From positions 45,563-65,562 of the IMG/VR virus record IMGVR_UViG_2865147665_000001: 20,000 bases of DNA; one strand, 5' to 3'. The DNA comes from an uncultured virus (IMG/VR IMGVR_UViG_2865147665_000001) (Duplodnaviria > Heunggongvirae > Uroviricota > Caudoviricetes). The notes beneath the pieces were generated by a model. The model did not search any database, had not been told where the DNA came from, and was given only the letters and a program-made list of their open reading frames with translations. Position numbers and translations under genes: made by a program. Every line of letters starts with the position of its first letter. Positions within the stretch are counted from its first letter, which is position 1. Below, one piece after another: positions 1-18,990 of the stretch.

Positions 1-2
1 TA

Positions 3-3000
3 CTTGACCAGCGACTTTCTGCGGAGCACTTCACCGAGCTTCAGACATCGGCGATCAGCGACGATGTGATCGAGGCGTCCGGTGCGTACACGGCCTGGGA
101 GAGGGATGATTTGCCCGATCCATTGCGATGGGTCGGTGACCGCGACGGTGCGCTGCCCGCTCTGGTGTTCCCACTGACCGAGGCCGGTAAGGGTGAGACC
201 TGGCAGGCCAAGCCACAGCCTGGCTTTGTCACGCTGACCGACGGTCGCTCACCCAAATACATCGGCCCCAGCAAGGACTCCGGCTACCCCACCCCAGCAC
301 TCATTGAGCGTCGGGCTGTGGATGATACGACCCGCCGTGTCCTCGTGGTCGAGGGCACGAAGCAGGCACTGGCTGTGATGTCGGCAAGCGATGAGAGCAC
401 TGCGGTCTACGGCCTGTCGGGAATCACGTCCTGGATGGGTGGCGATGATGGCCCTAGCTCGGCGTTTCAGCTTGTCGGTGGCTTGCCGGTCTATATCGTC
501 GCCGACGCTGACGCCGCGAGGAACCGCAGGGTCTATGACGGGGCCGCAGGTATCGGCGAGCTCTGTCGACAGTGGGGCGCGAGCCCCGTCCGGTTCGTTC
601 GCTTCCCCGGTAGCGGTAAGCAGGGCATCGACGATGTGCTTGGCGGTATTGATTCCCCCGCGCAGCGGGAGAAGATGCTGGAGCTGTGGGTCAAACAGGC
701 CGAGGATAAGCCTGCCAAGAAGCGGCCCAGCTTGAGCAGCACGATACCTACGAAGGATACTTCGCAGGGGTCTGACGGATCGGCCAAGCCGATTATTAGC
801 ACGGACCTGCCCGACGACCAGATCTGGGACGCGGTAGACAACGCGGTATATGAGAAGTTCGCTGGTAAGCGGCTTTTTCGCACCGACCACAAACTCGTGT
901 GTCTCGTGCATCGTGATGGACGCAAACACCTCATTCCGGTGAGTAACGCTCTGGCGGTGGATTTGTCGGCGCAGGCGATTCGGATTGTTCACTCCACGCA
1001 GACGAAGTCGAAGGTTCGGGCGCTGTCTGACAAAGACGCGGCTACCGTTTTCAACGGCGCACGTGTCGGACGGTATCCCCGCATCGAGGGCATCGTGGAG
1101 ACGCCTGTGCTCACCCCGAGCGGCAGGGTCTTGTCCGAGCCCGGCTACGACGAAGAGACCGGCCTGTTACTCGACTTGTCCGATGATCTCGACGGCTTCC
1201 ACGTGCCGGATGACCCGTCACAGGAAGAGGTCACAGCTGCCCGCGAGCTCCTGGAGGAGGTCTACGCCGACTTCCCGTTCAAGACGGAAGCTGACCGGAC
1301 CCGTGCTATCGGCATGGTACTCACCCTGCTTGTCCGCCCGTCGTGCGAGACCTCGCCAATGCACGTCATCTCGGCTAACACACCGGGCACAGGCAAGGGC
1401 CTGTTGCTGTCTGCCGTGAGCATGATTGCTCACGGCTACGGCGCGCGGGTGCAGAAGATGCCCCATCACGATGAAGAGATGCAGAAGGTACTCACGTCGG
1501 CGCTTCTCGCTGGTCAGACGATGCTGATCTTCGATGAGACCGGTGAGGGGATCGGTAGCCTGTCGCTGGCCGCCATGCTGACCTCCACCTACTACGAGGG
1601 TCGTATCCTCGGCGAGTCCCGGCACTTGTCGGTGAAGAACTCAGCCTGCGTTTTTGCAGCCGGAAACAACGTCGCGGTGAAAAAGGATCTTGGACGTCGA
1701 ACAGTGATGGTCGAGATGAAGACGCCGTTGGCGAGCCCAGAAGCTCGCGACGACTTCACACACCCGGACCTGTTGGTGTGGGTCAAAGACAACCGACGGG
1801 CCCTGCTGGAAGCCGCGTTCACACTCATCCGGGCCTGGATCGTTGCTGGTGAGCCTGCCCCGGCACCGGGCCAGCCGGTGGGTAGCTTTGAGGACTGGTA
1901 CCACGTGGTGGGTGGCGTCCTTGAGCACGCTGGTAGGCGTGACCTCATGTTTGGCGTGCGCGAGCAGCGGGCACAGCACAATGAGAGCGAACTTGAGGAC
2001 CTGGCGCATCTGCACTGGGTGAGCGTGAACTTTGATGAGCCCTTCCGTGCTTATGACGTGGAGTGCAAGATTCGCGAAACGCAGGGTTTTATCCCGCTCC
2101 CGTCAGACATCCAGACCCTGGACGAGGTGACCGCGCAGCGGTTGGGTCGGGTGTACACGAAGCTTCAGGACCGTAATCTTGCTGGTTTCGTCGTCAAGAT
2201 GGCCGGGATGGTCAACCACACGAAGCGCTTTAAGGTGACCTATCTCGGCCCGGACGGGAACGGTGGTGGTCCTGGCGGCCTCAACGACCCGGACGGTGGT
2301 AGCCCCACTCCCCCTCCTGCACCTGGCGGTAGTGCTGTCGATGCCGACAACACTGGCGCATCCACGGTGGTATTCGACCTGGAGACCGCTAGCGCCGATG
2401 GGTTGCACACGACCGATGACCCTGCGTGGGTTCGCTTGGCGGCGTATCAGGTGGATGGTGGCGAGATCAGGACAACGACGGACATCGCCGGTGAGCTGCT
2501 GCCGGTTCTGCGAAACGCGGGCACGATTGTCGGGCACAACATCACACATTTCGATCTCCCTGCGCTGGAGCGCCTATATGGCTTTGCTCCGTCGCCCGAG
2601 CAGCGCGTCGAGGACACTCTCGTGCTTGCCCGTCTCGTGGACCCTCCCACGACGGGAAAGAAGTACCACCTCGACGCTGTGGCTACCCGCCTCGGTCTCG
2701 GCGGTAAGTTGCTGGCCGATGGTGACACGGCGCTGAAGGCTCTGGCCAGCCAGCACGGTGGTTTCGACCAGATTCCAGTCGATGATCCGCAGTATGTTGC
2801 GTACGCCCGACAGGATGTGCGTGCCACGGCAGATGTCCACTGTGCGCTCGTGAAGCGTGTACCGGATGCGGAGTACGTGGCCTATGAGCATGAGGTCGCT
2901 CGCGTGCTGGCTGGCGTTGAGTCGCGGGGTATCCGCGTCGATGTCGATCTCGTTGAAGAAACGCTGGCCGACGAAGACACAGTGAAAAACGGCATCCGTG

Positions 3001-4058
3001 GCTGGCTCGTCAATACCGTCGGCATCCCGGATGAGGGTAAGGCCCCGTGGGCGACGAAGGCCGGTAAAGAAGCTATTCAGTCCTACCTTCAGCGTTACGG
3101 GGCCCAGCTACCGTTGACGAAGACGGGTGCGCCGACAACGACAAAAGACGCCTTCAGTGAGCTTGCCGAGCAGCACTCTGACTCGCGTGAGGTCGTCGAA
3201 GTCTGCGAGAACATGGTGGCGCTATTGGAGACGCGCAGCCCGGCGAAGACGGTGAAGAAGTACCTGCGCAGTGATCGGGTGTTCCCGTCCATCCAGCCGT
3301 CGCAAGCCACGGGTCGGTTGAGTACGACGAAGCCGGGCATGACGATCTTTGGCTCGCGTGGTGAGCGCTTGCTTGCGCAGCGGGCGATGATCCTGCCCGA
3401 GCCGGGCGAGCGGTTGCTGTCTGTCGACCTGTCGCAGATTGATGCTCGCTGCATGGCGGCTGCTGCCGGTGATGAGGCCTACGCGGCGCTGTTTGCCGAA
3501 GGTCGTGATGCGCACACGGAAATGGCGGTGCGGGTGTTCGGTGATCCCGGTCGTCGCCCGGATGCGAAGGCGCTCGCGCACGCGGCGAACTACGGCATGG
3601 GAGCGAGATCCTTTGCCGCGCATGTCGGTTGCAGTGTGGCCGAAGCGGAGCGGATGCTGTCGAGCCTTCATCTCGAATTCCCTCGCCTCGAAAGTTTCAA
3701 GGAACAACTGCGCAAAGGCGCGGAGACCTCAGGGTATGTGACGACCGGTTTCGGTCGACGTGTCGCTGTTAATCGGGACAAAGCGTACACCCGAGCGCCT
3801 GCCGCTTACGGCCAAGGAACGGCTCGCGACGTATTCCTCCACGGTGTGCTTGCCATGCCCGAGGACGTGCAACGAAGGATCCGCATTTTCGTCCACGACG
3901 AGGTTGTTCTGTCGGTGCCAAAGGACCGCGTTGAGGAGGTGCGACAGTGTGTGCTCGATGCCTTCTCAAGTGTCGCCCTTCCCTCCGCCGACGGCGTGCA
4001 CGTTCCAGTCCTCGCGGACAGTGCGGGGCCGGGTCGGGATTGGAGTGAGTGCAAGTGA
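3..4058 (+). CDS. Primase (TOPRIM/DUF3854-like)-helicase-like ATPase-3'-5' exonuclease-family A DNA polymerase fusion; 5' end probably outside the window
   Basis: Frame is open from base 3 (LDQRLSAEHFTELQTSAISDDV...). TOPRIM motifs VLVVEG (E at 351), ADAD (501-512) and GIDD. Walker A SANTPGTGKG (1371-1400), Walker B LIFDE, AAGNN, DLGRR. Exo I FDLET (2373-2387), Exo II GHNITHFD, Exo III YARQD. PolA TGRLS, motif A DLSQIDAR (3426-3449), motif B KALAHAANYG (3567-3596), motif C VHDE (3891-3902). Confidence 0.9.
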   Translation, partial: LDQRLSAEHFTELQTSAISDDVIEASGAYTAWERDDLPDPLRWVGDRDGALPALVFPLTEAGKGETWQAKPQPGFVTLTDGRSPKYIGPSKDSGYPTPALIERRAVDDTTRRVLVVEGTKQALAVMSASDESTAVYGLSGITSWMGGDDGPSSAFQLVGGLPVYIVADADAARNRRVYDGAAGIGELCRQWGASPVRFVRFPGSGKQGIDDVLGGIDSPAQREKMLELWVKQAEDKPAKKRPSLSSTIPTKDTSQGSDGSAKPIISTDLPDDQIWDAVDNAVYEKFAGKRLFRTDHKLVCLVHRDGRKHLIPVSNALAVDLSAQAIRIVHSTQTKSKVRALSDKDAATVFNGARVGRYPRIEGIVETPVLTPSGRVLSEPGYDEETGLLLDLSDDLDGFHVPDDPSQEEVTAARELLEEVYADFPFKTEADRTRAIGMVLTLLVRPSCETSPMHVISANTPGTGKGLLLSAVSMIAHGYGARVQKMPHHDEEMQKVLTSALLAGQTMLIFDETGEGIGSLSLAAMLTSTYYEGRILGESRHLSVKNSACVFAAGNNVAVKKDLGRRTVMVEMKTPLASPEARDDFTHPDLLVWVKDNRRALLEAAFTLIRAWIVAGEPAPAPGQPVGSFEDWYHVVGGVLEHAGRRDLMFGVREQRAQHNESELEDLAHLHWVSVNFDEPFRAYDVECKIRETQGFIPLPSDIQTLDEVTAQRLGRVYTKLQDRNLAGFVVKMAGMVNHTKRFKVTYLGPDGNGGGPGGLNDPDGGSPTPPPAPGGSAVDADNTGASTVVFDLETASADGLHTTDDPAWVRLAAYQVDGGEIRTTTDIAGELLPVLRNAGTIVGHNITHFDLPALERLYGFAPSPEQRVEDTLVLARLVDPPTTGKKYHLDAVATRLGLGGKLLADGDTALKALASQHGGFDQIPVDDPQYVAYARQDVRATADVHCALVKRVPDAEYVAYEHEVARVLAGVESRGIRVDVDLVEETLADEDTVKNGIRGWLVNTVGIPDEGKAPWATKAGKEAIQSYLQRYGAQLPLTKTGAPTTTKDAFSELAEQHSDSREVVEVCENMVALLETRSPAKTVKKYLRSDRVFPSIQPSQATGRLSTTKPGMTIFGSRGERLLAQRAMILPEPGERLLSVDLSQIDARCMAAAAGDEAYAALFAEGRDAHTEMAVRVFGDPGRRPDAKALAHAANYGMGARSFAAHVGCSVAEAERMLSSLHLEFPRLESFKEQLRKGAETSGYVTTGFGRRVAVNRDKAYTRAPAAYGQGTARDVFLHGVLAMPEDVQRRIRIFVHDEVVLSVPKDRVEEVRQCVLDAFSSVALPSADGVHVPVLADSAGPGRDWSECK

Positions 4059-5058: not shown

Positions 5059-5436
5059 ATGAATAACGGACGACGAATGACAGTGCGCCTCGGCGACTCC
5101 GAGGACGAGGTGGTGCGCAGCACCGCGTCGGCTCTCGGCGTCACCGATAGCGAGGTTGTACGACTGGCGATCATTGCGATGGCGGATAGGTTGCCTGTCG
5201 GTGTAGGTGAGCAAGTGGCGGCTCCTCCGGTGCCGCCTGAAGTGGTGGAGTTGCGCGAAGCGCTCGACCGCTTGGTCGCTGAGGTGTGCCGCGTCGGCGT
5301 GAACATCAACCAGATAGTTCGTATCTGTCACGTGAATGGGTGGTCTGACGACGAACTGCCGGGGCTTCTTGGTGTCCCCGGTGTGATCGACGATCTCGTA
5401 GGCCACGTGCGGGAGGCAGTGGATCGTGTCTGTTAG
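5059..5436 (+). CDS. mobC: Relaxosome accessory protein MobC (ribbon-helix-helix)
   Basis: N-terminal RHH pattern RMTVRL...LGVTDSEVVRLAI and MobC motif RVGVNINQIVR; GAGGAG at 5044-5049; overlaps the relaxase start. Confidence 0.88.
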   Translation: MNNGRRMTVRLGDSEDEVVRSTASALGVTDSEVVRLAIIAMADRLPVGVGEQVAAPPVPPEVVELREALDRLVAEVCRVGVNINQIVRICHVNGWSDDELPGLLGVPGVIDDLVGHVREAVDRVC

Positions 5437-6901
5437 CAAGGTTCAGCGCTCGAGGGATGCTGCCGCTGCCGTGATCTACGCCGTCTACGGAACGAAGAAG
5501 GCTATGAAGGCTGGCTCGGTGCGTGCTGCTGCTGTCTCCGTTGTCGGTCCACGCGGAAGTAACCCCGTGGTGTGGGTGATGGAAACTCGGTCGCGAGTTC
5601 AGGAGTCGGTGCAGCGCCGTAACGAGACGATCAACATCATCCAGTCGTTTAGTCCCGACGAACTAGACCCTGACAACCCCTTGGACGTGGAGAAGGCGCA
5701 TGCGGCGGGCCTCGCCTTGGCCGCGAAGATGGCTCCTGATTGCGACGTGGTCGTCGCTACTCATACCGATACCGCACATGTTCACAACCACATCATTGTT
5801 GCCAACCATGATCGTGGAACTGGGAGGGCCGCGCCGAAGGCGGTAGGCAACGCGTGGCGTGTCCGCGAGACCAACGACGACGTGATGGAGGTCTTCGGTT
5901 TGAAGGTGCTTGGTCGTGATCCGGTGTCGTTGTCGCGCGACGAGCGGGTGGCGCAGGCGAAGGGCGTTGACATTGACGGTTCAGACTTGTCGCTGTCGGA
6001 GTTGACACGCGAGACCTGGCGTGAGTTTGCCCGTGCTCGCATCGAAGAGTTGTTAGAAGACGACCGCGTAATCGCTGCCCTCGACATCGACGGCGGTGGT
6101 GGTGTGGAGCCTGGCTTGGAAGTGATGGAAGAGATCGCCTTCGAGTATCACCTGTCCTTCTCACGCAAGGGGCGGGGCAAGCGCACGCGCAAGAGCGAGC
6201 GGTCGTCGTTCGCATTGGTCGGCGACGACGGCAAGGAGCTGCGCTTGACCGATCGCAACGGCAAGGGCAGCTCTAAGGCGGCTACTGCCGGGTCTCGACT
6301 CGGCTCTGACTACACGATGGATGGGCTTCGCGCTCGGCTACATGAAATACACGCAGAACGACTGATTGATGGAATGGAGATTGACAACAATGGTGGACAA
6401 CAAACGACGGCAACGGACGGACAGCACGGAGTTGCTGAACAAGTTGGCCTCGCAGCTGACGGCGCTAACGAAACAAGTCGAGGACGTGAAGGCTCTGCCG
6501 GTCGGGATGCCCGAGGACGTGGAGCTGCACTTGGCGAGTTATCAGAAGCAACTGACGGACTTGAACAAGCGCATGGAGTCCTTGCAGCGTTCAACAGTGG
6601 GGACGAAGGAATACGAGACGGCGATGGCTCAAGCGACGGCCTCGATGAAGTCGATGGCGGAGATCGCGGCCGCGCTGCCGGTGGCGATTCAGCGCCAGCA
6701 CGAGGGACTGCAGAAGTCGGTGACCGGGATCGTGGCGCCGCTAACGTCGATGGGCGACTTGCTGAAGACCGTGCTCGAACTCGTCGAAGGGCCGCTGAGT
6801 CTCAGCGACGACGCAGTGGAGAGGCTGAGCGTCAGCGTCGAGAAGCGCTTGAGTCCGATGGTCCTCGACCACCTGAAGGCGACTATGGACCGGACTTTTA
6901 G
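5426..6901 (+). CDS. Relaxase / mobilization nuclease, MOBP-like
   Basis: N-terminal Tyr (IYAVYG), motif II IIQSFSPDE, HUH motif HTDTAHVHNHIIV; directly follows mobC; low-complexity C-terminal tail. Confidence 0.9.
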   Translation: MSVSKVQRSRDAAAAVIYAVYGTKKAMKAGSVRAAAVSVVGPRGSNPVVWVMETRSRVQESVQRRNETINIIQSFSPDELDPDNPLDVEKAHAAGLALAAKMAPDCDVVVATHTDTAHVHNHIIVANHDRGTGRAAPKAVGNAWRVRETNDDVMEVFGLKVLGRDPVSLSRDERVAQAKGVDIDGSDLSLSELTRETWREFARARIEELLEDDRVIAALDIDGGGGVEPGLEVMEEIAFEYHLSFSRKGRGKRTRKSERSSFALVGDDGKELRLTDRNGKGSSKAATAGSRLGSDYTMDGLRARLHEIHAERLIDGMEIDNNGGQQTTATDGQHGVAEQVGLAADGANETSRGREGSAGRDARGRGAALGELSEATDGLEQAHGVLAAFNSGDEGIRDGDGSSDGLDEVDGGDRGRAAGGDSAPARGTAEVGDRDRGAANVDGRLAEDRARTRRRAAESQRRRSGEAERQRREALESDGPRPPEGDYGPDF

Positions 6902-7339: not shown

Positions 7340-7906
7340 CTATTCTTTGACCTCATGCAGCGCGCGATAGATGGTTTGCCGCGAGACGTTGAAGGTGCGT
7401 GCCACCGATGCGACGCTCTCGCCGCTGTCGACCAACTTCGCGGCCTGCTGCTTCTGTTCCATGCTCAACTTCGGCTTCGGTCCTGCCACTCGGCCTTCAG
7501 CCCGGGCATGGGCCACACCTTCACGGGTGCGTTGGACGAGAAGGTCCCGCTCCCACTCGGCCAGGCTCGCCATAACGTTGACTACTACCTTGTCGGCTGG
7601 TCGGCTGGTGTCGAGTGCAGGCTCCAGGACGCGGACGTTGATGTCCCTCTCAGCGAGGTCAGCGATGGTGTTGACAGTTTCGGCGAGGTTACGGCCCAGG
7701 CGATCGAGACGGGTGACCACCAGGGTGTCATCAGAGCGCATGTAGGCCAATGCGTCGTCGAGACCGGGGCGGTTCCAGTTGGTGCCGGAGATAACGTCCT
7801 CGTAAATGCGTTTAGGGTCACAGCCCGCGTTAACGAGCGCTTCACGTTGGGTGTCGAGTGACTGGCCCTGGCGGGCTGTTGAGACGCGGGCATATCCAAT
7901 AAGCAT
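7340..7906 (-). CDS. Small serine recombinase (resolvase/invertase family)
   Basis: MLIGYARVST catalytic motif, RPGL, VTRLDRLGR, C-terminal HTH (VASVARTFNVSRQTIYR). Confidence 0.95.
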   Translation of the reverse strand: MLIGYARVSTARQGQSLDTQREALVNAGCDPKRIYEDVISGTNWNRPGLDDALAYMRSDDTLVVTRLDRLGRNLAETVNTIADLAERDINVRVLEPALDTSRPADKVVVNVMASLAEWERDLLVQRTREGVAHARAEGRVAGPKPKLSMEQKQQAAKLVDSGESVASVARTFNVSRQTIYRALHEVKE

Positions 7907-7908: not shown

Positions 7909-10900
7909 TTACTCACCTGTCAGCTCTTCCTCGGTCACCGTGAGGTCAGCAGGCAGCACGCCATCGATGATGTAGGTGCGCAGGAGCTTGTCCAGCATCG
8001 CACGAACCTTGAACTTCGACACTGGTGCGCCAGTGACCTCGGTGAAGTAGGCGGTAGCCAAGTCGAGGTCAATGGATGCCTTGAGGTCATCGAAACGCCC
8101 GTACTCGTTGATGGTTGCTGCCGTAACACGGCTGTCGAGTATTCGGCGCAATAGTCCCGTATCCAGCCCCAGTCGCTCATGAAGACGTGCCAGCTGCCGG
8201 TCACGCTCGGTGATGCGGTACTCGTTGATGTAGTCCTGCACTGTCTTGCCCGGTTGCAGGGCCACGTCGCCTGCCTGGAGATCATGCAGCCAACGGTTAG
8301 CGTAGCGCTGGTCGTCTTGGCTTAGGCGGGCGAAACTATCATGTAGCTGCTCCAGCAGATCATCGAGCATGTGCTCTGCCACGCCGTCCTGGAGTGCCTT
8401 GAGGTACTTCTCAAACTTGCTGTTGAGGTACTCGGCATCGATGCGGTCGGTGTCGATGTGCGTGATGTGCACGTCAATATCGAAGGGCGCGTCATCTGCC
8501 CCACCGGGTGGGTCAGTTGGATCGCCTCCCTCCTTGCCAAGTTCCTTGTAACGGGTGAGCAATGTGGTGAAGACGTCCTCGGTGAGCGTTACCACGATAG
8601 GTTCAGGGAGTGCATCGAAGTAGTAGGTGTCCTTCTCCCAGGTAAAGCCCTGCACCTGTGCTGCCTGGAGTTCGCGGTACATCCGATTGAAGGTCTTGGC
8701 GAACTCGCCCTGGTCAGCCTCAGAATCGGGCAGCTTCGAGAAGTCCGTCTGGCCGGTCGCCGGGTCAGTGAACAGCACTGTAATGATCTCAAAACATTCA
8801 TTGATGGCCTTAAGGTGCTCGTCGAGGTGGTCCACGAACAGGCCGAAAGGCTTGTCACCTGAATACAGCTTCACCGCACGGTCGATGTTGTTCTTCATCG
8901 TGTGTGGCTTGCGGTAGTAGCGGATGGAACCGAACGGCTTTTCCGGGCCGAAGATGCGGTTGGTGCGTGAAAAGGCCTGGATAATGGACTCGTATTCGAT
9001 AACCTTGTCCATGTAGAGGGTGCTGAGCCACTTGGAGTCGAAGCCGGTGAGCATCTGGTCCACCACGATGAGTAGGTCAATGTGCTGGCTACGGTCATCG
9101 AGGAAGGCCTTGGTGTTGTAGGGCGCCTTGTGGGCCAGGCGCTTGGAAACATCCTTCTTAAACTCATCGTGAGTCGGCATGGTGAAGTGCTGGCCATAGG
9201 CAGCGTTGTAGTCGCGGAGAATCTCCAGCAAACCGTCTTCCTTGAACAGCTGACTGTCACCAGTGTTGTCGATATTAGGATCAAACAGCGCCGTGACCTT
9301 AATGTGCGGGTACTGCGCCTTGAAGATGCGGTAGTACTCCACTGCTTCAGGGATGCTGGAGGTCGCCAGGATGGCATGGAACATACTGCCCCGACTCAAC
9401 TGTGCCCAGTGCTCGTTAATGTCGCGGGCAACCGCCTGGCGGTGGTTGTCTTGACGGTACTGAGTGATAGGCAGGTAGTCTTCGATACCCTTGGCGACAC
9501 GCTTGGTACCACTGTCGGTGTCTGTCTCATAGACGCTGGCCATCGGGACCTGGTCCTTGTCCATAAACTTGTAGTAGACAGCCGCCTTCTTGGGGTCCGC
9601 CAGAGCCTCGTCCACGGACGTGGCCTTGGCCTCCTGGAGAGCAACCACAGTGCGCACATCATGCGCCCGGAAGGTTTCCACCATCTCCGGGTCGAAGCCG
9701 AGGACGTTACCGTCGCGAATACCGTCGGCAATTGAATAGCGGTGCAGCTCATTGCCAAACAGCGTGGTCGTGGTGGAGTGCTTCTTCTGGTTCTCGTCGT
9801 GGATGGGCGTGCCGGTGAACCCAAAGAACAGCGCGTTCGGCAAAGTGCGCTTAATGGTCGCGAGCATGTCACCAAAGGTGGTGCGGTGTGCCTCATCGAC
9901 GATGAACACCACACGCTTGGAGCGGATGATGTCCAGGTCGGCTTTCTTGACGGAATCAGCATTAACCCTGCTCATCTTGTGCAGGGAGGTCACGATGAGG
10001 GTGGAGTGCTTGTTCTTGAGCAACGTTATCAACGTGGCAGCACTGGAGGTATCTTCCACGGCGATGCTGTCGCCACCGTAGCTTTCGTAGTTCTCCAACG
10101 ACTGCGTGCCCAGCTCCACACGGTCGAGGAGGAACACTACCTTGTCGGCGTTGTGGGAGTCTGCGATAAGCTGCGCGGTCTTGAAGCTGGTAATCGTCTT
10201 GCCAGAGCCGGTGGTGTGCCAGATGTAGCCACCGAGTTGGTCACCACTGTCCCAGTCGTGACGGTCCACACGGTCAGCGATACGAGAGGCTGCGTAGTAC
10301 TGGTAGGAACGCATGGCCAACAGGTTGCCAGAGGCCCGGTCGGCGACAGTGTAGAAACCAATGAGCTGGTGCGCCATCGGAATAGACAGTAGTGCTCGTG
10401 CCACATCGTCCCACTGGTTGACCGGCTCGTTGTTGAAATCCGCCCAGTGGAAGAAGTAGTCCGGGTTGAACTTAGCTGACCCTGGGTTGGCGAAGTAGAG
10501 TGTTTCCTCCGGGGTCATCGCCACAAAGATTTGCACCAGAGAGAAGATGCCCTGGTAGACGCCCTCGTGGGCGTACTTGGCTACCTGGTTGGCGCCTTGC
10601 GAGACAGGCACGCCTGAGCGCTTGAGTTCGATGTGGAAGACCGGCATACCGTTGATGAGCAGCATCAGGTCGCCGCGTCGTTTCGGCAGCAGCTCATCAG
10701 CGGTCTTGAAACGAGGCTGGACGGCAATCTGGTAGCGCGACTGGCCACCGGCAATCTCCAGGCGGTCATATATTTTCAGGCTGACTTCCACGCCGAAGTT
10801 GTGGGCCTGCGGCGCATCACGGGTGATGGTGACTGTGCGACCGTTGATGAACTCGTTGAGAGCCAACGGCGTGCGCAGCACGTTGATCTGCTCGATGATT

Positions 10901-11100
10901 TGCGCCATCTCGCCCTCGGTGAGTGGCACATCGCCCAGCAGGTCACGGCCCCGGTTGTTGGCGTAGAGAATGTTGGCCCAGTTGTCGATGAGCTGTTGTT
11001 CCGTCGGGTAGCGCAGTAGCTCATCGCTCCAACCGTGGCGGGTGAGCAGGTCGATGAGCGCCGCCTCGAACTCAGCCTCGCAGCGAAATGATGTGGTCAT
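7909..11100 (-). CDS. hsdR: Type I restriction enzyme, restriction subunit R
   Basis: Nuclease motif GDLMLLINGMPVFHIELK; helicase motifs HTTGSGKT, DEAH, GFTGTP, MLTGFD, QAFSRTNR; AGGAG RBS at 11106-11110. Confidence 0.97.
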   Translation of the reverse strand: MTTSFRCEAEFEAALIDLLTRHGWSDELLRYPTEQQLIDNWANILYANNRGRDLLGDVPLTEGEMAQIIEQINVLRTPLALNEFINGRTVTITRDAPQAHNFGVEVSLKIYDRLEIAGGQSRYQIAVQPRFKTADELLPKRRGDLMLLINGMPVFHIELKRSGVPVSQGANQVAKYAHEGVYQGIFSLVQIFVAMTPEETLYFANPGSAKFNPDYFFHWADFNNEPVNQWDDVARALLSIPMAHQLIGFYTVADRASGNLLAMRSYQYYAASRIADRVDRHDWDSGDQLGGYIWHTTGSGKTITSFKTAQLIADSHNADKVVFLLDRVELGTQSLENYESYGGDSIAVEDTSSAATLITLLKNKHSTLIVTSLHKMSRVNADSVKKADLDIIRSKRVVFIVDEAHRTTFGDMLATIKRTLPNALFFGFTGTPIHDENQKKHSTTTTLFGNELHRYSIADGIRDGNVLGFDPEMVETFRAHDVRTVVALQEAKATSVDEALADPKKAAVYYKFMDKDQVPMASVYETDTDSGTKRVAKGIEDYLPITQYRQDNHRQAVARDINEHWAQLSRGSMFHAILATSSIPEAVEYYRIFKAQYPHIKVTALFDPNIDNTGDSQLFKEDGLLEILRDYNAAYGQHFTMPTHDEFKKDVSKRLAHKAPYNTKAFLDDRSQHIDLLIVVDQMLTGFDSKWLSTLYMDKVIEYESIIQAFSRTNRIFGPEKPFGSIRYYRKPHTMKNNIDRAVKLYSGDKPFGLFVDHLDEHLKAINECFEIITVLFTDPATGQTDFSKLPDSEADQGEFAKTFNRMYRELQAAQVQGFTWEKDTYYFDALPEPIVVTLTEDVFTTLLTRYKELGKEGGDPTDPPGGADDAPFDIDVHITHIDTDRIDAEYLNSKFEKYLKALQDGVAEHMLDDLLEQLHDSFARLSQDDQRYANRWLHDLQAGDVALQPGKTVQDYINEYRITERDRQLARLHERLGLDTGLLRRILDSRVTAATINEYGRFDDLKASIDLDLATAYFTEVTGAPVSKFKVRAMLDKLLRTYIIDGVLPADLTVTEEELTGE

Positions 11101-11109
11101 GACAGCTCC

Positions 11110-12339
11110 TTAGATGAACATCCGTTGCAGCAGCGCCGTCTTGGCTTGCTTGAGGGACTCGATGTACTGAGCCTCAGCGGCAATGAGGGAATCTAGCCGG
11201 GTAAACACTGCGCCGATGGCCTGTTGTTCTTCGAGGGTGGGTGGAATGAAGACTTCCAAGTTCTTTACTAAGGCGCCGGACAGATTACCTTGCCCGCCTT
11301 GCAGGTACGTGTCAGTGATGTTCTTCTTGTTCATCCTTAGCCATGCCACTAGGTAGGCAGCGTTAAACCCATCACGTGGAATTAGCGCGAGAATCGCCTG
11401 GTTAATGGCACCTTCAATCTTAGCTAGGCTTACTTCACCCGCAGTCGCACCATAAAGCGCGTAGAGCACCCACCCTGGCTGAACCATCTTGGCAGAACTG
11501 AAATGAAGCCCTGCCTCAGTAAGGGTTAACTCAGTGAATGAGCTAGAAATTTCTGAGGAACGGATAAAGGGGATGTCCCCACCGTAGAACGCGTTTGTGC
11601 CAACAGTAGGTGTTCCCCCAGAAAACGAGTCTGCGATTGCTCCTACCTTAACGACATCCCACTCACCGTCGAATCCCTCCAGCCGCAGCTCGGGCACTGT
11701 CTGGCCCTCCTGCGGGAACATGCACTGCATGAGCGCCGTCTTGGCCTGCTGCAGCGCCTTGTGCTTGAGCATGTGCTGGTTGATGGCCGCGTCGAGATTG
11801 GTGAAGATAGCGCCGATGGCCTGCTGTTCTTCGAGGGTGGGTGCAAGCGTAACGGGAACTTCCAGGAAGTCTTGAGCAGATATGTTGAGCAAGCCGTGGT
11901 TTCGCGCGCCTTCAGCGGAATTGGCTTCTACAAACCTATGCCAGCTGGAAGTTTCAAAGAAAGTGACTAGGAAATCTCCATCAATGGGTGGATGTTCCAA
12001 GAGTCGAAACACAATGTAGAGAGATGACAGGACGCCACGGTCGTACTTGTCGAGACGTTTTACAGTTCCAACAGGATGTCCGGCTGAAAAGCTTTTGTTA
12101 TATGCAAATTCACCATTCTCTACGAGCAGATAGTTTCGGAGATTCGCACTGGCCACTCGATTGTTGAAGTAGGTGATCTGATCCACCAGACCGTACTGAG
12201 CAGAGATAGTAAGCGGTAGGGTGCTTTGCAGGTCTGTGTTCTTCCGCTGCACCCTTTCAGTGAAGGTGTTCAGAGGCACAGTCTCCCACTCACCATCGAA
12301 GCCCTCCAGCCGCAGTGCGGGTACGTTCTGCTTAGGCAT
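11110..12339 (-). CDS. hsdS: Type I R-M specificity subunit S (two TRDs)
   Basis: Duplicated conserved blocks VP(A/E)LRLEGFDGEW, PTLEEQQAIGA and QAKTAL(M/L)QxMF flank two variable regions; ATG 12339 overlaps the hsdM stop. Confidence 0.96.
   Translation of the reverse strand: MPKQNVPALRLEGFDGEWETVPLNTFTERVQRKNTDLQSTLPLTISAQYGLVDQITYFNNRVASANLRNYLLVENGEFAYNKSFSAGHPVGTVKRLDKYDRGVLSSLYIVFRLLEHPPIDGDFLVTFFETSSWHRFVEANSAEGARNHGLLNISAQDFLEVPVTLAPTLEEQQAIGAIFTNLDAAINQHMLKHKALQQAKTALMQCMFPQEGQTVPELRLEGFDGEWDVVKVGAIADSFSGGTPTVGTNAFYGGDIPFIRSSEISSSFTELTLTEAGLHFSSAKMVQPGWVLYALYGATAGEVSLAKIEGAINQAILALIPRDGFNAAYLVAWLRMNKKNITDTYLQGGQGNLSGALVKNLEVFIPPTLEEQQAIGAVFTRLDSLIAAEAQYIESLKQAKTALLQRMFI
11132..12315. 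repeat. Direct repeats within hsdS (conserved regions)
   Basis: 11210-11243 vs 11810-11843 (33/34 identical); 11657-11688 vs 12284-12315 (30/32); 11132-11145 vs 11732-11745 (14/14). Confidence 0.9.
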
Positions 12340-14929
12340 CACGACCACCGCCCAGCAGCTCTTGCAGTGCAGTTACAGCCTGCATATCGGCAGTGTTGCC
12401 CGTGAGTCCACTGAGCAGGCTAGCCAGCTGCTGCTCCGTCTCGCGAATCTGCACGTCGAGGTCGGTCAGCGCTACCGCGTACTTGTCGTGCAGCGCCTGA
12501 ACGCGGGCTGCAAGACCTGCAAGCACGTGACCAGGGATGTCCCGCAGGTCATCCATGAGTGCAGTGATCCACTTGGCGGTGAGCACTTCGTCTACCTGCG
12601 CGTCGGTGAGCGCTTCGATGGTGGCGTAGGTGTCTGCCTCAAGCTGCTGTTCGGCAACCTTGAGGTCCTTCTTGAGTGTGTCACGCTGCTCGATGAGGGC
12701 CTTGGCGCTGAGCATGACAGCCTCGACACTGCCCTCCGGCCAGGTCTGGCCCTTGGGTAGCTTCGGTAGCTCCTTGATGGCCTTCTTCAGTGCAGCAGCA
12801 GTGAAAGCATCCTGCTTATCGTTGAGTACCTCGGCCAGGTCGGTCTTGTCATCTTCGCTCAAGCTCTCGATGAGCTGCGTCAGCTCCGATACCGCTGTGT
12901 CTAGGTCACGGCTCAGCTGGGTTACTTGGTCCTTGAGCTGCGGCAGGTAGAGTTCCTGCACCAACTCATTGGGGGCGATACGCCCCTCCCAGCCGACCTG
13001 GACTTCTTCCTTCTTACCCTTGCGGGTCTTCATCTCCATGACAGGGTCGTTGACCCGCACGGCGTCTAGGCCTTCGGTCTGGATGACCTCTAGGTCAGCA
13101 GCAGTGTTGATCCAGCTGTCATGGAGAACCTGGTAGCCCTCGTAGGCATCAACCAGCGGTACAGGGTCGAGCCGGTCGAATAGGCCAGCCTTGAGCTGGT
13201 CTTCGGTGGTGTTGAGTGGCACGGTGGCGGCGCTGTCCACAAGCAGCGCATGCAGCTTCTCTGGCAGGTCAGATAGTGCTGCATTGACCTGGTCACGCAG
13301 TGCCTGAGCTGCAGGGTGCTGGTCGACAGCCTCACGGAGGTTAGTGGTGTTCAGCTCCGCGTAGCCATTGGCGTTTTCGGTGAACAGAGCCTCACGCAGA
13401 CCAGGCAGCGCAGTCCAGTAGTGCTCCAGGGCGTCAATCTCCGACACTGGAATACCACCGTGCATGGTGGCGTACAGGTCTACAGCCTCCGGCGGCAGGG
13501 TGGCAGACACGTAGCGCGGAATGTTGAGGTTATGGTCGTTCTCGCGAATCTCGTCGCGGGTCACGACCTTAGCGAAGTGTGGCACGTCCTCACGGTTGTG
13601 GACAGCATCAACGATCCGCTGGATGTCGCGGGCACGCAGGTGGTTGTACTTACCCTGCTTAACGAAGCCTTGAGAAGCATCGATGAACAGCACGTCATCG
13701 CGGTCACGCTCCTGCTTGAGCACCAGGATGATGGTGGCAATGCCCGTGCCGTAGAAGATGTTGGAGGGCAGGCCGATGACGGCATCGATGTGGTTGGCCT
13801 CGATGAGATTGCGACGGATGTCAGCCTCAGAGCCACCACGGAACAACACGCCGTGCGGCAAGACGATGGTGAGAATACCGTCGGGCTTGACGTGGAACAG
13901 CTCATGCAGCAGGAAGGCGTAGTCAGCCTTGGTCTTGGGCGCCAGACCAAACCGTGAGAAGCGTGGGTCAGCCTCGTTACCTTCCGGCTCCCACTTCTGG
14001 GAATATGGCGGGTTGGAGACAACCGCGTCCACGTAGAGCGGCTGGTAGGTCTGCACCGGGTCGGACTCGTCGAACATTGGCCAGTCATGAGCCAGGCTGT
14101 CACCGTTGCGAGCGACAATATTGTCAGCCTTCACGCCACGCATGACCAGGTTCATTCGCGTGAGGTTGTACGTGTTCTCGCGCAGTTCCTGGGCAAAATA
14201 CTTGATGCGGCTTGGGTCGCCCATGCGCTTGGCAACGGCTTGGCCGATATTGAGTAGCAGGGAGCCAGAGCCAGAGGTCGGGTCATAGATTTGAATCTCC
14301 TCGCGGCCCTTGAGGTGGTCGGCGACGATGTTGCTCATGATGAGCGAGACTTCGTGTGGGGTGTAGAACTCGCCCGCCTTCTTACCTGCGTTGGCCGCGA
14401 ACTTCTCGATGAGGTACTCGTAAATGTAGCCGAGCACGTCATAGCCCTGCTTGCCGTCGGTGGGGATGTCGTCGATAAGCTCCAGTAGCTTTTTGATGGC
14501 AGCGGTTCGTGCGGTATCGGTAGTGCCGAGCTTGGACAGGCCGGTCTCAAGGGTGTTGAAGATGTCCTCGAAGACATGCTTGCGCTCTGGAGCAATGTTG
14601 CGCTTGAACGTGGCTAACCCTTCACGCACGTGCGCGATGGAGAAATCGTTGCCCATGTCCCGCCACGTGGAGTACAGGTTCTCGTAGGTGAGGAAGTATC
14701 CCAAGTTGTTGCGCACCAGGGATACAGTGTCGGTGTCCGTCTCAACCAGAGCATCAGGCAGGTCTTCCGGCTCAGCGTCGTTGAGTAGCAGGAACTGCTC
14801 GACCTGGTCCGAGAGGAACTTATAGAAGATGAAGCCGAGGATGTAATCCTTATACTCGTTGGCTTCAATTTTGGAGCGCATATTGTTGGCCGATTCCCAG
14901 ATGCGGTTGGCCAGTTCTTGTTTGTTCAC
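12332..14929 (-). CDS. hsdM: Type I R-M N6-adenine methyltransferase subunit M with long C-terminal extension
   Basis: Typical N-terminus NKQELANRIWESANNMR, GEFYTP, motif I DPTSGSGSLL, motif IV NPPY. GTG 14929 preceded by GAGG is preferred over the ORF-track start at 15022. Confidence 0.96.
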   Translation of the reverse strand: MNKQELANRIWESANNMRSKIEANEYKDYILGFIFYKFLSDQVEQFLLLNDAEPEDLPDALVETDTDTVSLVRNNLGYFLTYENLYSTWRDMGNDFSIAHVREGLATFKRNIAPERKHVFEDIFNTLETGLSKLGTTDTARTAAIKKLLELIDDIPTDGKQGYDVLGYIYEYLIEKFAANAGKKAGEFYTPHEVSLIMSNIVADHLKGREEIQIYDPTSGSGSLLLNIGQAVAKRMGDPSRIKYFAQELRENTYNLTRMNLVMRGVKADNIVARNGDSLAHDWPMFDESDPVQTYQPLYVDAVVSNPPYSQKWEPEGNEADPRFSRFGLAPKTKADYAFLLHELFHVKPDGILTIVLPHGVLFRGGSEADIRRNLIEANHIDAVIGLPSNIFYGTGIATIILVLKQERDRDDVLFIDASQGFVKQGKYNHLRARDIQRIVDAVHNREDVPHFAKVVTRDEIRENDHNLNIPRYVSATLPPEAVDLYATMHGGIPVSEIDALEHYWTALPGLREALFTENANGYAELNTTNLREAVDQHPAAQALRDQVNAALSDLPEKLHALLVDSAATVPLNTTEDQLKAGLFDRLDPVPLVDAYEGYQVLHDSWINTAADLEVIQTEGLDAVRVNDPVMEMKTRKGKKEEVQVGWEGRIAPNELVQELYLPQLKDQVTQLSRDLDTAVSELTQLIESLSEDDKTDLAEVLNDKQDAFTAAALKKAIKELPKLPKGQTWPEGSVEAVMLSAKALIEQRDTLKKDLKVAEQQLEADTYATIEALTDAQVDEVLTAKWITALMDDLRDIPGHVLAGLAARVQALHDKYAVALTDLDVQIRETEQQLASLLSGLTGNTADMQAVTALQELLGGGRDA

Positions 14930-14940
14930 GAGGACCTCAC

Positions 14941-15078
14941 TGTTCATAATCGCTCGATTATGGACACCTCTGGACGGAGAGGGTCGAGACGTGACTCGCA
15001 ACGCCCGAAAGATGTTCCACAATCGCTGTTCTGGTTCTCCATTGTACCATAACTGACCAATTGACGATTATGGAACAT
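14941..15078. promoter_or_regulatory. Array of TGTTCCATAATCG-like half-sites (candidate res site / operator) overlapping the hsdM promoter
   Basis: Half-sites at 14941-14952 (+), 14955-14966 (-), 15013-15025 (+), 15043-15055 (+, degenerate) and 15065-15077 (-). Confidence 0.6.
15039..15049 (-). promoter_or_regulatory. Putative extended -10 promoter of the hsdM-hsdS-hsdR-resolvase operon
   Basis: Minus strand reads TGG-TACAAT-GG (TGn extension plus TAnnnT), about 110 nt upstream of hsdM; no clear -35. Confidence 0.55.
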
Positions 15079-15138
15079 ATAGTTTCGCTTGTTGCGGTAA
15101 CTACCCTGCACGGTGTCCGACCTTGTGCGAAGATTCCT

Positions 15139-16593
15139 GGCTCTTCTCGATTTAGAGTGCGTTGATCCGGTCCTGCAGCTGGCCGGAGTGGATCAGCGAC
15201 CGCAAGATGTAGTGGTCGAGGTTCCTGAACCCTAGGGCGATGCCGCGTAGATGCTCCAGCCTGCCGTTGATGGCCTCGACCGGACCGTTGGATGCGCCGA
15301 TATCGAAGTACGCCAGGATGTCGTGCCGTCGGCGCCACAGGGTCCGGCCGAGTTGCGCCAGCTCCTCCAGCCCCGTCGGTAGGCCCTTGCGCAGGGTGCC
15401 GATCACCCTGCCCATCAACTTCTTGCCCCGCGCTCTGTCCGGCTGACCATAGGCACTGACCAGGTCCTGGTAGAACTCCCAGGTCACCTGCAACGCGACG
15501 TAGTCATCGTCGGTGTCCCACAGCCGATCCAGGCGCTGGCGCTGCCGGTCGGTGAGGAAATCGGTCCTGGTCAGCAGCGCCCGGCGGTGCTTGTACAGCG
15601 GATCGTCTTTCTGCCCCCGACGTCCGGTGGTTTCTCGCTGCAGGCGTTGCCGACACCCGCTGAGCTTCTCTGCAGCCAGGTGGACGACGTGGAACGGGTC
15701 CATGACTTTGCGCGCCGCAGGGAGAGAGTGGTCGACGGCGGTGGCGTAGCCGGTGAACCCGTCCATCGTCACGACCTGCACCCCGGCCCGGAAGTCCGGG
15801 TCCCGCTCACCCAGCCAGGTTTTCAGGACGTCTGCGGACCGCCCCGGGCGCATGTCGATCAGACGTGCCGGGCCTGCCCCGTCGGTCAGCGGGGTCAGGT
15901 CCACCAGCACGGTGACCATCGAAGACGGCTCGCCGGGTCGGCGGGTGTGTTTCCAGACGTGCTCATCGACGCCGAGGACCCGGACCCCAGCCAGGTGGGA
16001 GGGGTCAGCGTAGACCATGCTCCGGGCCGCGGTGACGGCGACGGTATTGACCAACTCCCAGCCGATTCCGAGAGCCTTCGCCGTGGCGGCCACGCTCATA
16101 CGGTCGATGGCGAGGCGTTGGAGGATCCAGCGGGTCACCCGGTGGGTGAGTTTCGCCCCGTCGTCAGCGCAGGCCAGTGAGGTCTGGAAGATCTTCCTGC
16201 TGCAGGTGGGGTTGGTGCATGTGAAGCGGGGTACCCGGACGTTCAGGCGGGTGGGGAACCCCACGACCGGTAGGTCGACGAGTCGACGTCGGATGTGGTC
16301 CCGCTTCACCCCAGGCATCGCGCAGTCCGGGCAGGTGTCGGCTACGTCCACCGGCTCGGCGTTGATGATGGTGAGGGTGCCGGCGTCGGCGGCATCGGTG
16401 ATCGTCAGACCGAGTTCTGCGGTGCGGCAGATGGTGTCGGCGACGAGGTTGCCAGTAGGGTGCACGGTAGGGTCCTGGTTCGGTCAGATGGAAGCTTCGC
16501 AACTCTCATCTTGTACCGGCCAGGGCCTCTGTATGTTGTACCACCCCGCGTCCCGCCCTTCAGCTATCTACGCACTCCGAACCGCGAAGAGCC
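15139..16593 (-). mobile_element. ISL3-family insertion sequence, 1455 bp, intact
   Basis: 24-bp terminal inverted repeats GGCTCTTCTCGATTTAGAGTGCGT / GGCTCTTCGCGGTTCGGAGTGCGT (20/24); perfect 8-bp target duplication AGATTCCT at 15131-15138 and 16594-16601. Confidence 0.96.
15152..16465 (-). CDS. ISL3-family transposase
   Basis: Zinc finger CPDC...CTNPTC, LGVDEH, VTMDGFTGY, DPFHVV, SNGPVEAIN, GFRN; the stop codon lies inside the terminal IR. Confidence 0.96.
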   Translation of the reverse strand: MHPTGNLVADTICRTAELGLTITDAADAGTLTIINAEPVDVADTCPDCAMPGVKRDHIRRRLVDLPVVGFPTRLNVRVPRFTCTNPTCSRKIFQTSLACADDGAKLTHRVTRWILQRLAIDRMSVAATAKALGIGWELVNTVAVTAARSMVYADPSHLAGVRVLGVDEHVWKHTRRPGEPSSMVTVLVDLTPLTDGAGPARLIDMRPGRSADVLKTWLGERDPDFRAGVQVVTMDGFTGYATAVDHSLPAARKVMDPFHVVHLAAEKLSGCRQRLQRETTGRRGQKDDPLYKHRRALLTRTDFLTDRQRQRLDRLWDTDDDYVALQVTWEFYQDLVSAYGQPDRARGKKLMGRVIGTLRKGLPTGLEELAQLGRTLWRRRHDILAYFDIGASNGPVEAINGRLEHLRGIALGFRNLDHYILRSLIHSGQLQDRINAL

Positions 16594-16622
16594 AGATTCC
16601 TACCGAACGTCGTGGTTGAGAC

Positions 16623-16650
16623 AAAAAGAGTCCCCTCCCCCGAGGGACTC
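16623..16650 (-). terminator. Possible intrinsic terminator (last hairpin of the 16628-16705 cluster)
   Basis: Stem GAGTCCC/GGGACTC followed on the minus strand by TTTTT. Confidence 0.5.
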
Positions 16651-16707
16651 ACGAAAGTTGCCCTCCCCCCGAGCAACAGTGGCTCCCACGGCGTTCTCCA
16701 TACGCTG

Positions 16708-16749: not shown

Positions 16750-16782
16750 AGCGCACATGTGTCGATTGCAGAGCTATTTCTA

Positions 16783-18927: not shown

Positions 18928-18929
18928 AC

Positions 18930-18990
18930 ACCCCATCGTACCCACTACCCTGGTTCAAAATTCCCCGACCCGGTGGCGCCGATACACAGT
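18930..18990. other. Hybrid attachment site (host attB half / element attP half), crossover near 18960-18965
   Basis: Minus strand: GGCGCCACCGGGTCGGGGAA (host Walker A codons), then an abrupt switch to TTTTGAACCAGGGTAG with an in-frame stop, directly upstream of the integrase. Confidence 0.7.

Follow-up and report, generated by a model that had tools for sequence, protein, structure and literature searches.

A predicted single-chain primase-helicase-polymerase at the head of an integrative mobilizable element inserted in eccC

Proteins that unite primase, helicase and DNA polymerase in one chain are represented by two triple fusions in the account of Kazlauskas, Krupovic & Venclovas (2016; PMC4889955): Pas55 of the Actinoplanes phage phiAsp2, given there as a fusion of DnaG primase, superfamily 3 (SF3) helicase and family-A DNA polymerase (PolA), and gp55 of the lactococcal phage 1706. 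The same account describes gp-alpha of P4 as a DnaG-type primase joined to a D5-type helicase and an origin-binding winged helix. Among integrative elements, SCCmec (staphylococcal cassette chromosome mec) carries, according to Bebel et al. (2020; PMC7581432), the helicase Cch2 along with CCPol, a polymerase of family A, and the protein MP that partners it, a set proposed to form a replication module: Cch2 is a 3'-5' helicase of the SaPI5-Rep/D5 type that binds an origin sequence adjoining its own gene, and CCPol-MP primes at this place. Here we analyse a stretch of 20,000 nucleotides (nt), hereafter the window, which forms the final 20 kb (positions 45,563 to 65,562) of a 65,562-bp record of an uncultured virus classed as a provirus (IMG/VR IMGVR_UViG_2865147665_000001). 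Its first gene encodes a protein, called here the replicase, in which a TOPRIM primase, an SF3 helicase and a proofreading PolA are predicted to follow one another. The gene is the first of the backbone of an integrated island of 21,274 bp, and we consider it reasonably probable that the replicase is the replication module of this 21.3-kb integrative mobilizable element with a host among the Corynebacteriaceae.

Compared with the systems described so far, the element is a variant of known replicative or mobilizable islands, SCCmec being its nearest precedent, and the protein is a new member of the published Pas55 architecture, which is common in actinophages. Pas55 is a full-length homologue with the same order of DnaG-type primase, SF3 helicase and PolA, but it belongs to a phage of 58.6 kb in which it lies beside genes for a RecE-like protein, a helicase and terminase, whereas the present gene sits on a non-phage island with a relaxase and a serine recombinase and occupies a separate branch of the polymerase tree. 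Streptomyces phages, among them Xkcd426, TP1604 and YDN12, have the same halves in the same order, but as two genes (732 + 643 amino acids, aa, in Xkcd426); two genes are also found in islands of Nocardioides and Arthrobacter, which have tyrosine integrases (L013, L015) and no serine recombinase in their place. P4 gp-alpha shares the D5-type SF3 helicase, the origin-binding C-terminal domain and a DnaG-type primase in front (PMC4889955), yet it has no polymerase, and neither has SaPI5 Rep, the primase of which is of the archaeo-eukaryotic (AEP) type (PMC7581432). With the pattern-2 CCPol-MP-Cch2 module of SCCmec the present island has in common large serine recombinases, an A-family polymerase, a D5/SaPI5-type helicase and recombinase-flanked cargo; in SCCmec, however, three separate proteins are involved, priming is by PolA with MP instead of TOPRIM (PMC7581432), and the CCPols are described as lacking most of the exonuclease domain (PMC10201439). 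The host of SCCmec, unlike that of the island, is Staphylococcus. SCC integrates in rlmH and, to our knowledge, has no relaxase.

More distant parallels are provided by Prex of the apicoplast and by the T7 pair of gp4 and gp5, which have TOPRIM primase, helicase and exonuclease-proficient PolA, Prex as one polyprotein whose polymerase falls into the PolA cluster termed 'Hot Spring/Aquificae-like' by Czernecki et al. (2023; PMC10201439). A preliminary description of this DNA, made from its letters alone, had likened the layout to that of Prex: the presence of primase, helicase and PolA in a single chain stands, but the helicase of Prex and T7 is a RecA-type SF4 enzyme (Twinkle/gp4, DnaB), whereas the present one is predicted to be an AAA+ SF3 enzyme. 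Pipolins and casposons are, like the island, integrative elements with their own DNA polymerase; theirs is a primer-independent or protein-primed enzyme of family B, their integrases are different, and we know of no relaxase in them. The replicase resembles gp55 of phage 1706 in having helicase, primase and polymerase in a single polypeptide, but gp55 has an AEP primase and a family-B polymerase, and was characterised biochemically in 2025 as a 'four-in-one replicase' (PMC12205980). The same description had regarded a PolA-based class of this kind as undescribed; for the protein this fails, since the Pas55 architecture is in print, and a serine recombinase and a PolA/D5-type module are already found together in SCCmec.

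The replicase frame runs uninterrupted on the plus strand from window position 3 to a stop codon at 4056-4058 and is open at the 5' end of the window (features are collected in Table 1). Its ATG lies at record position 45448, 114 nt 5' of the window, and a GGGGG stands 11 nt before it; hence the single open reading frame (ORF) described earlier is confirmed, with the correction that its first 39 residues lie outside the window. The full gene comprises 1,390 codons, the last 1,351 of which are in the window, and two database gene calls with 99% and 87% identity have the same length of 1,390 aa. Residues are numbered below along the full protein (window residue + 39), and conservation refers to an alignment of 30 full-length relatives with 32-87% identity, in which the catalytic residues of all four activities are invariant down to 32% identity. 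With phmmer, residues 1-781 found no match among PDB sequences at E <= 10, and two pieces were therefore folded with AlphaFold2 (AF2; alignments of 55 rows), so that the folds of the N-terminal parts were revealed by structure prediction only. An insertion sequence (IS) of the IS3 family occupies record positions 44029-45339 (L004:6029-7339) and ends 108 nt 5' of the replicase ATG; its orfA (HTH_Tnp_1) and orfB (rve) lie on the minus strand, and it is absent from a 93%-identical island (L005). A plus-strand ORF at record 45024-45368 was dropped, the region being this IS3-family element with both of its genes on the opposite strand.

The N-terminal part of the replicase is predicted to be a DnaG-type (TOPRIM) primase. 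Each of the ten best Foldseek matches of its model is either the RNA-polymerase domain of a DnaG or the primase of T7 gp4 (query TM-score, TMq, 0.5-0.63), with 5guj and 1dd9 (DnaG, TMq 0.61-0.63) and 1nui (T7 gp4 primase) at the top. At the sequence level, residues 5-241 of the window protein match phrog_16213 'DNA primase' (PHROGs, E 3e-25), and Pfam gives a weak match near the N-terminus to DUF3854, a TOPRIM-like family that, when combined with a helicase, is found in Rep proteins of cyanobacterial plasmids (PMC10079941). The TOPRIM motifs noted in the preliminary description are borne out by this fold and by the invariance of E156 (nt 351-353) and of D207xD209 (nt 504-512). As residues 1-120 are free of cysteine and the model begins at the catalytic core, the primase has no zinc-binding domain.

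For the central part, the structural model indicates an AAA+ SF3 helicase of the D5-like branch, not the SF4 type of Prex, Twinkle and T7 gp4. Foldseek matched this model to ASFV PrimPol, MPXV E5, vaccinia D5, the SaPI5 primase-helicase, NrS-1 CTR and PriRep1. With VIA-align the best match was SaPI5 (7ola_C; Z 15.1, root-mean-square deviation 7.3, 372 residues aligned over model positions 1-477), followed by D5/E5 (Z 12-14) and MCMs (about 11); no chain of gp4, Twinkle or DnaB appeared among the listed structure matches. The P-loop ATPase recognised before is upheld by its conserved residues: Walker A G503-K504 (K504, nt 1395-1397) and Walker B D550-E551 (nt 1533-1538) are invariant, as are G593 of the 'GNN' motif, with N594 conserved at 90% or more, and R604-R605 of 'DLGRR' (nt 1695-1700). 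Hence both N-terminal domains do model as the TOPRIM and helicase folds proposed for them.

In family collections the helicase part is poorly represented: Pfam (E <= 0.1) and NCBIfam (E <= 0.001) returned no family for it, D5_N, Pox_D5 and the P4 Primase_Cterm being unmatched, and in PHROGs two families without known function cover residues 311-673 of the window protein. At E <= 0.001 its relatives number at least 19,596 cluster representatives; 14 of the best 150 have at least 1,250 aa and most have 500-1,100 aa. None of 18 relatives scanned has a Pfam family over the helicase part, while the other domains found in these 18 are DUF3854 in three, an NrS-1-type primase-polymerase in one and PolA in two. 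This type of helicase is a very large family of mobile-element helicases for which there is no Pfam model.

Beyond the Gly/Pro-rich linker, which was found where it had been placed, the C-terminal part is, by profile and motifs, a proofreading family-A polymerase without 5' nuclease. The earlier claim of intact Exo I-III and PolA motifs A-C is substantiated by residues that are all invariant: D831/E833 (Exo I), N885/D890 (Exo II) and Y973/D977 (Exo III) in the exonuclease domain, which matches phrog_403 'exonuclease subunit' (E 2e-12) and, under its cut-off, Pfam exo1 (17.4 vs 23.6 bits), then D1181 (motif A), R1224/K1228/Y1236 (motif B) and H1337-D1338-E1339 (motif C) in the polymerase domain, which aligns with Klenow and Taq (E 8e-26). 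The absence of a 5'-3' exonuclease also holds: Pfam gave no 5' nuclease match in the replicase at E <= 0.1, and of the 889 profile positions of the NCBIfam Pol I model only 359-889 find a counterpart. Its score of 154 bits lies under the equivalog cut-off of 720 and, together with the missing 5' nuclease, makes the database name 'DNA polymerase I' a loose one. The B3 position of motif B is His1232 (window 3579-3581), which is invariant in 30 of 30 relatives and aligns opposite the F of Taq 'tinfgvlyg'. B3 is the Phe/Tyr/Leu site that controls dideoxynucleotide discrimination. The part of the PolA reclassification paper devoted to this position (PMC10201439) names F, Y and L and does not mention H.

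How widespread is this architecture? In a protein search that scored 8,000 candidates, restricted to lengths of 764-2,433 aa, there were 199 matches, and 116 of the 120 listed had at least 1,274 aa; several of those listed come from Corynebacterium species and bear the name 'DNA polymerase I' or simply 'DNA polymerase'. The polymerase part finds matches in 2,463 records of cultured phages, with coverage of 80% or more solely in two records of phiAsp2, whose Pas55, a single coding sequence of 1,415 aa, shows 32% identity over residues 43-1389, or 93% of the query (tblastn); at least 15 listed records of Streptomyces phages have the same halves as adjacent genes, 'DNA primase' and 'DNA polymerase I'. 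In a plasmid collection 107 records match and none reaches 80% coverage, so the replicase is not a known plasmid replicase. Of 177 candidate stretches from IMG/VR, a relative is encoded in 142, and 80 were retained. A match extends to the N-terminal part in 41 of the 80, of which 35 have everything in one frame and six have the polymerase in a frame of its own. The possibility raised earlier, that homologues are normally split genes or ordinary prophage polymerases, is accordingly true in that the relatives are largely phage genes, split in six of 41 loci and in Streptomyces phages, but not in general, 35 of 41 being fused. The clusters presented by Czernecki et al. (2023; PMC10201439) include Prex, and in the sections that describe them a TOPRIM-SF3 fusion is not encountered and the D29-like actinophage PolA cluster is given without known partners. 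On the biochemistry of Pas55 or of the present replicase we found nothing in the literature, no search having been aimed at it.

The surroundings of the gene are those of a mobilizable island. After the replicase its backbone continues with two small ORFs, a candidate origin of transfer (oriT), MobC, relaxase, a membrane protein, the cargo, ArdA and a large serine recombinase. Among the island ORFs no family of type IV secretion systems or of their coupling proteins was found at E <= 0.01; this, together with the recombinase, MobC, relaxase, precisely defined junctions that share a TT core and relatives in which the site is empty, substantiates the earlier claim of an integrative mobilizable element, with a candidate oriT. 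Inverted repeats occur at the equivalent position in four other islands, and an alignment of the region upstream of mobC in five islands gave a mean column identity of 53% and no shared nick motif. By its sequence the recombinase does not appear to be of the Ccr type of SCC: its distant NCBIfam matches to XisF and CcrB/C lie far under the cut-offs, with 71 bits versus 900 for CcrB/CcrC.

A separate siphovirus prophage, complete-looking, lies 5 kb from the island at record positions 1-38,211 (L002, L003) and has genes for endolysin, tape measure, capsid, portal, terminase, RecE/RecT, single-strand DNA-binding protein (SSB), replication initiator, repressor and tyrosine integrase. The replicase is not part of this prophage, from which the 'provirus' label of the record stems. 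Could the island be instead a satellite of such a phage, similar to phage-inducible chromosomal islands, in which the replicase fires upon induction of a helper, the nearby prophage for example, capsids are hijacked and the relaxase is secondary? The neighbourhood of the prophage, the SaPI5 primase-helicase as best structural match of the helicase and a replicase family that is mostly phage-borne would fit such a satellite, but MobC and relaxase are conserved genes of the backbone, none of the 80 viral loci contains relatives of the island MobC, relaxase, recombinase or ArdA, and neither a terminase small subunit nor genes for capsid redirection or for repression/derepression came to light when the island ORFs were searched with Pfam and PHROGs, several small ORFs being without family. 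We regard a satellite as improbable, and prefer to see the replicase as the replication module of a mobilizable element.

The genome collection comprised 16 loci, scanned with tblastn using the island proteins and with ORF calls. The fused gene is intact in six loci of Corynebacteriaceae (L005, L007, L008, L009, L010, L011) and incomplete in L006 and L019, which are short contigs. In Corynebacterium pollutisoli it is interrupted by a Mutator/IS256-type transposase (L012:9597-15313), and C. alimapuense has kept no more of it than the final 83 codons (L020:10001-10249) while MobC, relaxase, resolvase and recombinase persist. Of the suggested co-occurrence with serine integrase and mobC/relaxase, that with a relaxase recurs: one lies 3' of the replicase in 7 of 16 loci (L005, L009, L010, L011, L012, L019, L020). 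MobC was seen in five and a serine recombinase in three. The order replicase-MobC-relaxase is kept in L005, L009, L010 and L011, with 42-93% replicase identity, and in the decayed copies L012, L019 and L020. The module is split in Nocardioides (L013, 881 + 606 aa) and Arthrobacter (L015, 872 + 621 aa), where stop and start codons overlap and the integrases are tyrosine integrases. Outside genomes, contigs of 14 DNA runs (studies P1-P10), from food-production, abattoir, compost, wastewater, digester and faecal metagenomes, hold near-identical island sequence, with at least 0.82 of sampled words.

In a maximum-likelihood tree built quickly from the polymerase domain (89 rows; loci with a best match below 480 aa, among them L006, L012, L019 and L020, were left out) the seven island polymerases of Corynebacteriaceae form one group, separate from the viral contigs, with full support (SH-like approximate likelihood ratio test, SH-aLRT, 100) and a stem of 0.52 changes per column. 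Its sister group consists of L013, L014 and L015, the chromosomal loci of Nocardioides, Arthrobacter and Brachybacterium (SH-aLRT 100), and both are nested in a set dominated by viral contigs, along which the fused and split states switch many times. The island lineage of the replicase in Corynebacteriaceae is old and monophyletic, and this bears upon another explanation, namely that the gene is an inert relic, a replication module captured from an actinophage which has no role for the island. The phage ancestry of the family, the decayed copies L012 and L020 and the IS just upstream in the present copy are what one would expect of a relic; an intact frame of 4.2 kb, the invariance of its catalytic residues, the age and monophyly of the lineage and the position of the gene at the head of the backbone in at least six species are not. 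A relic is therefore quite unlikely in our judgement.

A function directed at the host, in repair, translesion synthesis or anti-phage defence, might be proposed with regard to the cargo, which is mostly defence: a type I restriction-modification (R-M) system here, GmrSD in L009, and GmrSD or MmeI-type enzymes across L009 and L013, with mercury resistance in L008 as a further variant. The replicase, however, lies in the conserved backbone and not in the variable cargo, and to find primase, replicative helicase and proofreading polymerase combined is characteristic of a replication module in the account of Kazlauskas et al. (PMC4889955), so that we hold such a function to be highly improbable. 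In relation to replication, the genome of Corynebacterium sp. HMSC04H06 (L007) shows, within the 10 kb downstream of the replicase, a gene for SSB (20711-21127, minus strand) and the class Ib ribonucleotide reductase genes nrdF, nrdE and nrdI (14880-19541), which may be further replication-related cargo.

How would the replicase serve the element? The analysis has established its domain folds and catalytic residues, the borders of the island, the vacant sites in relatives, the conserved gene order and a separate island lineage; the mechanism is inferred. The model of self-loading at an origin is founded on the analogy to P4 gp-alpha, to SaPI Rep and to Cch2 of SCCmec, and on this model the island may replicate itself through the protein. 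After excision, the helicase part would load itself at an origin, which on the circle would probably be close to its own gene, and unwind in the 3'-5' direction; the TOPRIM part would lay primers, which the polymerase part would extend with proofreading, so that the circle would be copied largely without the replicative polymerase of the host, while SSB, primer removal and ligase would still be supplied by the host. Amplification of the circle would guard the element from loss and feed the relaxase, and when a single strand has entered a recipient the same enzyme could synthesise its complement. Within this reading the role may be maintenance in the donor or establishment in the recipient.

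Establishment might be the sole task, the replicase priming and completing the complementary strand in the recipient, after the relaxase has mediated transfer of a single strand and before integration by a recombinase that needs double-stranded attP. ArdA typically functions early upon entry, and conjugative plasmids have TOPRIM primases for priming in the recipient, such as TraC of RP4 and Sog of ColIb. The position of the replicase next to mobC, relaxase and candidate oriT, and the presence of ArdA on the same island, would agree with this alternative; yet a hexameric helicase and a self-loading initiator are both dispensable for complementary-strand synthesis, the three-part module is conserved as a whole, and the same module is the replicase of lytic or temperate actinophages. 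We judge a role limited to establishment unlikely, and return to the replication module of the excised circle as the preferred interpretation.

Several points weigh against a replication module and have to be set beside the evidence in its favour. Elements that carry a relaxase can rely on host enzymes for rolling-circle replication, as in ICEBs1. The predicted primase is missing the zinc-binding domain that in DnaG and T7 gp4 serves to read the template. No convincing iterons were found near the replicase; in the search for an origin, the upstream region revealed no families of direct repeats and the downstream region only two-copy repeats and palindromes (4386-4421, 4701-4737). The IS3-family element may part the replicase from its promoter, and the two RNA-library runs are Logan contigs that may hold DNA and are silent on transcription. 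No gene for SSB, clamp, ligase or primer removal was found on the present island. The decayed copies L012 and L020 indicate that the replicase is dispensable for persistence of the integrated island, and no circular form was present among the four metagenome loci found with the recombinase (L114-L117), which are integrated or uninformative. Finally, replication of SCC in vivo is not shown, according to its authors (PMC7581432).

The target of integration is eccC, the gene for the ATPase of type VII secretion. The C-terminal part of the gene lies at record 40911-43247 (minus strand), begins with 'KSEFLRS...', contains FtsK/SpoIIIE domains and adjoins a WXG100 gene; the left junction of the island is at record 43249-43250, outside the window, and has only the TT core in common with the right one, the two junctions defining the length of 21,274 bp. 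A query with the N-terminal part of eccC found a match in 33 of 41 related genomes (a tally that includes the unpublished G034, used there only). In the three closest relatives (G013, G020, G007; 64-66% identity, frames of 1,054-1,084 aa) eccC is uninterrupted, reads 'GATGSGKSELL' across the site, and aligns end to end with both parts; it follows that the island sits inside the codons of the first Walker-A motif, between GATGSG and KSE. This insertion is recurrent: the C-terminal part of eccC abuts the island in five loci (L005, L007, L008, L010, L020), with the N-terminal part about 18.6 kb beyond in the genome of L005, and a metagenome scan with the recombinase gave four loci, in one of which (L114, recombinase 90% identical) the same junction occurs with a different eccC, while in L115 and L116 the alignment continues about 50-60 nt beyond the core into eccC codons and L117 was uninformative.

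In the four runs examined the host eccC flank at 19344-20000 is uncovered, which does not in itself speak for other hosts. A contig of 921 nt (X15) matches the window exactly up to 18962 and then continues with 180 letters unlike it, which is compatible either with a circular junction or with the eccC of another host. A 99%-identical protein (P0003) is encoded on a contig of 18,483 bp, and the island minus both of its ISs would measure 18,500 bp (21,274 - 1,311 - 1,463); this contig could represent the island assembled alone, as a circle or because the flanks differ among hosts.

The recurrent insertion shows a conserved catalytic motif serving as attachment site across species. Carriers should lack functional EccC, and with it type VII secretion, for as long as the island stays in place, and this could amount to a secretion switch. 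A rather doubtful extension is that these islands of Corynebacteriaceae make up a class of their own, not yet described, among replicative integrative mobilizable elements, amplifying the circle by a phage-derived single-chain replisome and operating a reversible type VII switch through the Walker-A site of eccC, with the ATPase split by integration and restored by precise excision. In the literature searched there is no account of a serine-recombinase insertion in Corynebacterium eccC, nor of a Corynebacterium integrative mobilizable element with DNA polymerase and primase; to that extent, the pairing of the replicase with relaxase and serine recombinase, the dedicated island lineage of its gene and the repeated attachment site in the eccC Walker-A are new. 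The protein itself is less surprising than first thought, since its family is common, databases already hold it under the label 'DNA polymerase I', and the architecture has been published. Should its domains work as predicted, the replicase would constitute the bacterial PolA-based counterpart of the family-B enzyme of phage 1706, and a single polypeptide for priming, unwinding and proofreading synthesis would be attractive for primer-free isothermal amplification and for work on minimal replisomes. Likewise, the idea derived from SCCmec, of a serine-recombinase island with its own replication module, would extend to actinobacteria and to relaxase-bearing elements.

Table 1. Features of the window (window coordinates; residues of the full replicase where given for its domains)
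Feature	Position	Strand	Basis
Replicase gene, window part	1..4058	+	Pfam DNA_pol_A, E 2e-41, 142.5 bits vs cut-off 34.3
Predicted DnaG-type TOPRIM primase, residues 40-272	3..701	+	AF2 pLDDT 96, Foldseek, phrog_16213
Predicted D5-like SF3 helicase, residues 301-790: collar, AAA+ core, winged-helix-like end	786..2255	+	AF2 pLDDT 92.8, Foldseek, VIA-align
Gly/Pro-rich linker, helicase to exonuclease, residues ~786-824	2247..2360	+	direct sequence reading
3'-5' proofreading exonuclease domain, Exo I-III intact	2358..2915	+	invariant residues, phrog_403
Family-A polymerase domain, motifs A-C	2916..4055	+	Pfam DNA_pol_A, Taq/Klenow alignments
Small ORF A with basic C-terminus, listed length 143 aa	4068..4499	+	kept 3' of the replicase; 96% identical in L005; no Pfam/PHROG/NCBIfam match
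Small ORF B, 118 aa	4502..4858	+	97% identical in L005; no significant family match
Candidate oriT: 20-nt inverted repeat, 95% complementary, 32-nt loop	4938..5009		location just 5' of mobC, inferred only
MobC-like relaxase accessory	5059..5436	+	weak Pfam MobC/NikA, below cut-off; kept with relaxase in 5 loci
Relaxase, MobA/VirD2 nuclease domain at residues 55-159	5426..6901	+	Pfam Relaxase, E 2e-17, 64.4 vs 24.6 bits
Coiled-coil protein with C-terminal membrane helices	6366..7328	+	kept after relaxase in relatives
Small serine resolvase/invertase, in cargo region	7340..7906	-	Pfam Resolvase, E 6e-43
Type I R-M cargo: hsdR 7909-11100, hsdS 11110-12348, hsdM 12332-15022	7909..15022	-	Pfam
ISL3-family insertion sequence, transposase 15152-16465	15131..16593	-	Pfam DDE_Tnp_ISL3
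ArdA anti-restriction protein	16783..17373	-	Pfam ArdA, E 3e-19
Large serine recombinase (integrase)	17449..18945	-	Pfam Resolvase + Recombinase + Zn_ribbon_recom
Right junction attR, TT crossover core	18961..18962		junction comparison
Host eccC N-terminal part, ending '...GATGSG' + 5 island-derived codons and stop	18945..20000	-	ORF + Pfam

Three further observations concern genes listed in Table 1. The tail of the relaxase ORF, which is of low complexity and rich in Gly, Arg and Asp, overlaps the following ORF (6366-7328) by about 535 nt; given this overlap, the composition of the tail and the fact that relatives match only to about residue 320, the true end of the relaxase or the start of the membrane protein is uncertain. 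The ISL3-family element is a recent insertion private to the present copy, as contigs of three of the four examined metagenome runs join 15130 to 16594 and an 8-bp target duplication is present. In the R-M system, which the small resolvase adjoins, hsdS is only 67% identical to its counterpart in L005, against 99.7% for hsdR and 95% for hsdM over the portion that aligns; the target-recognition domains of hsdS have been exchanged.

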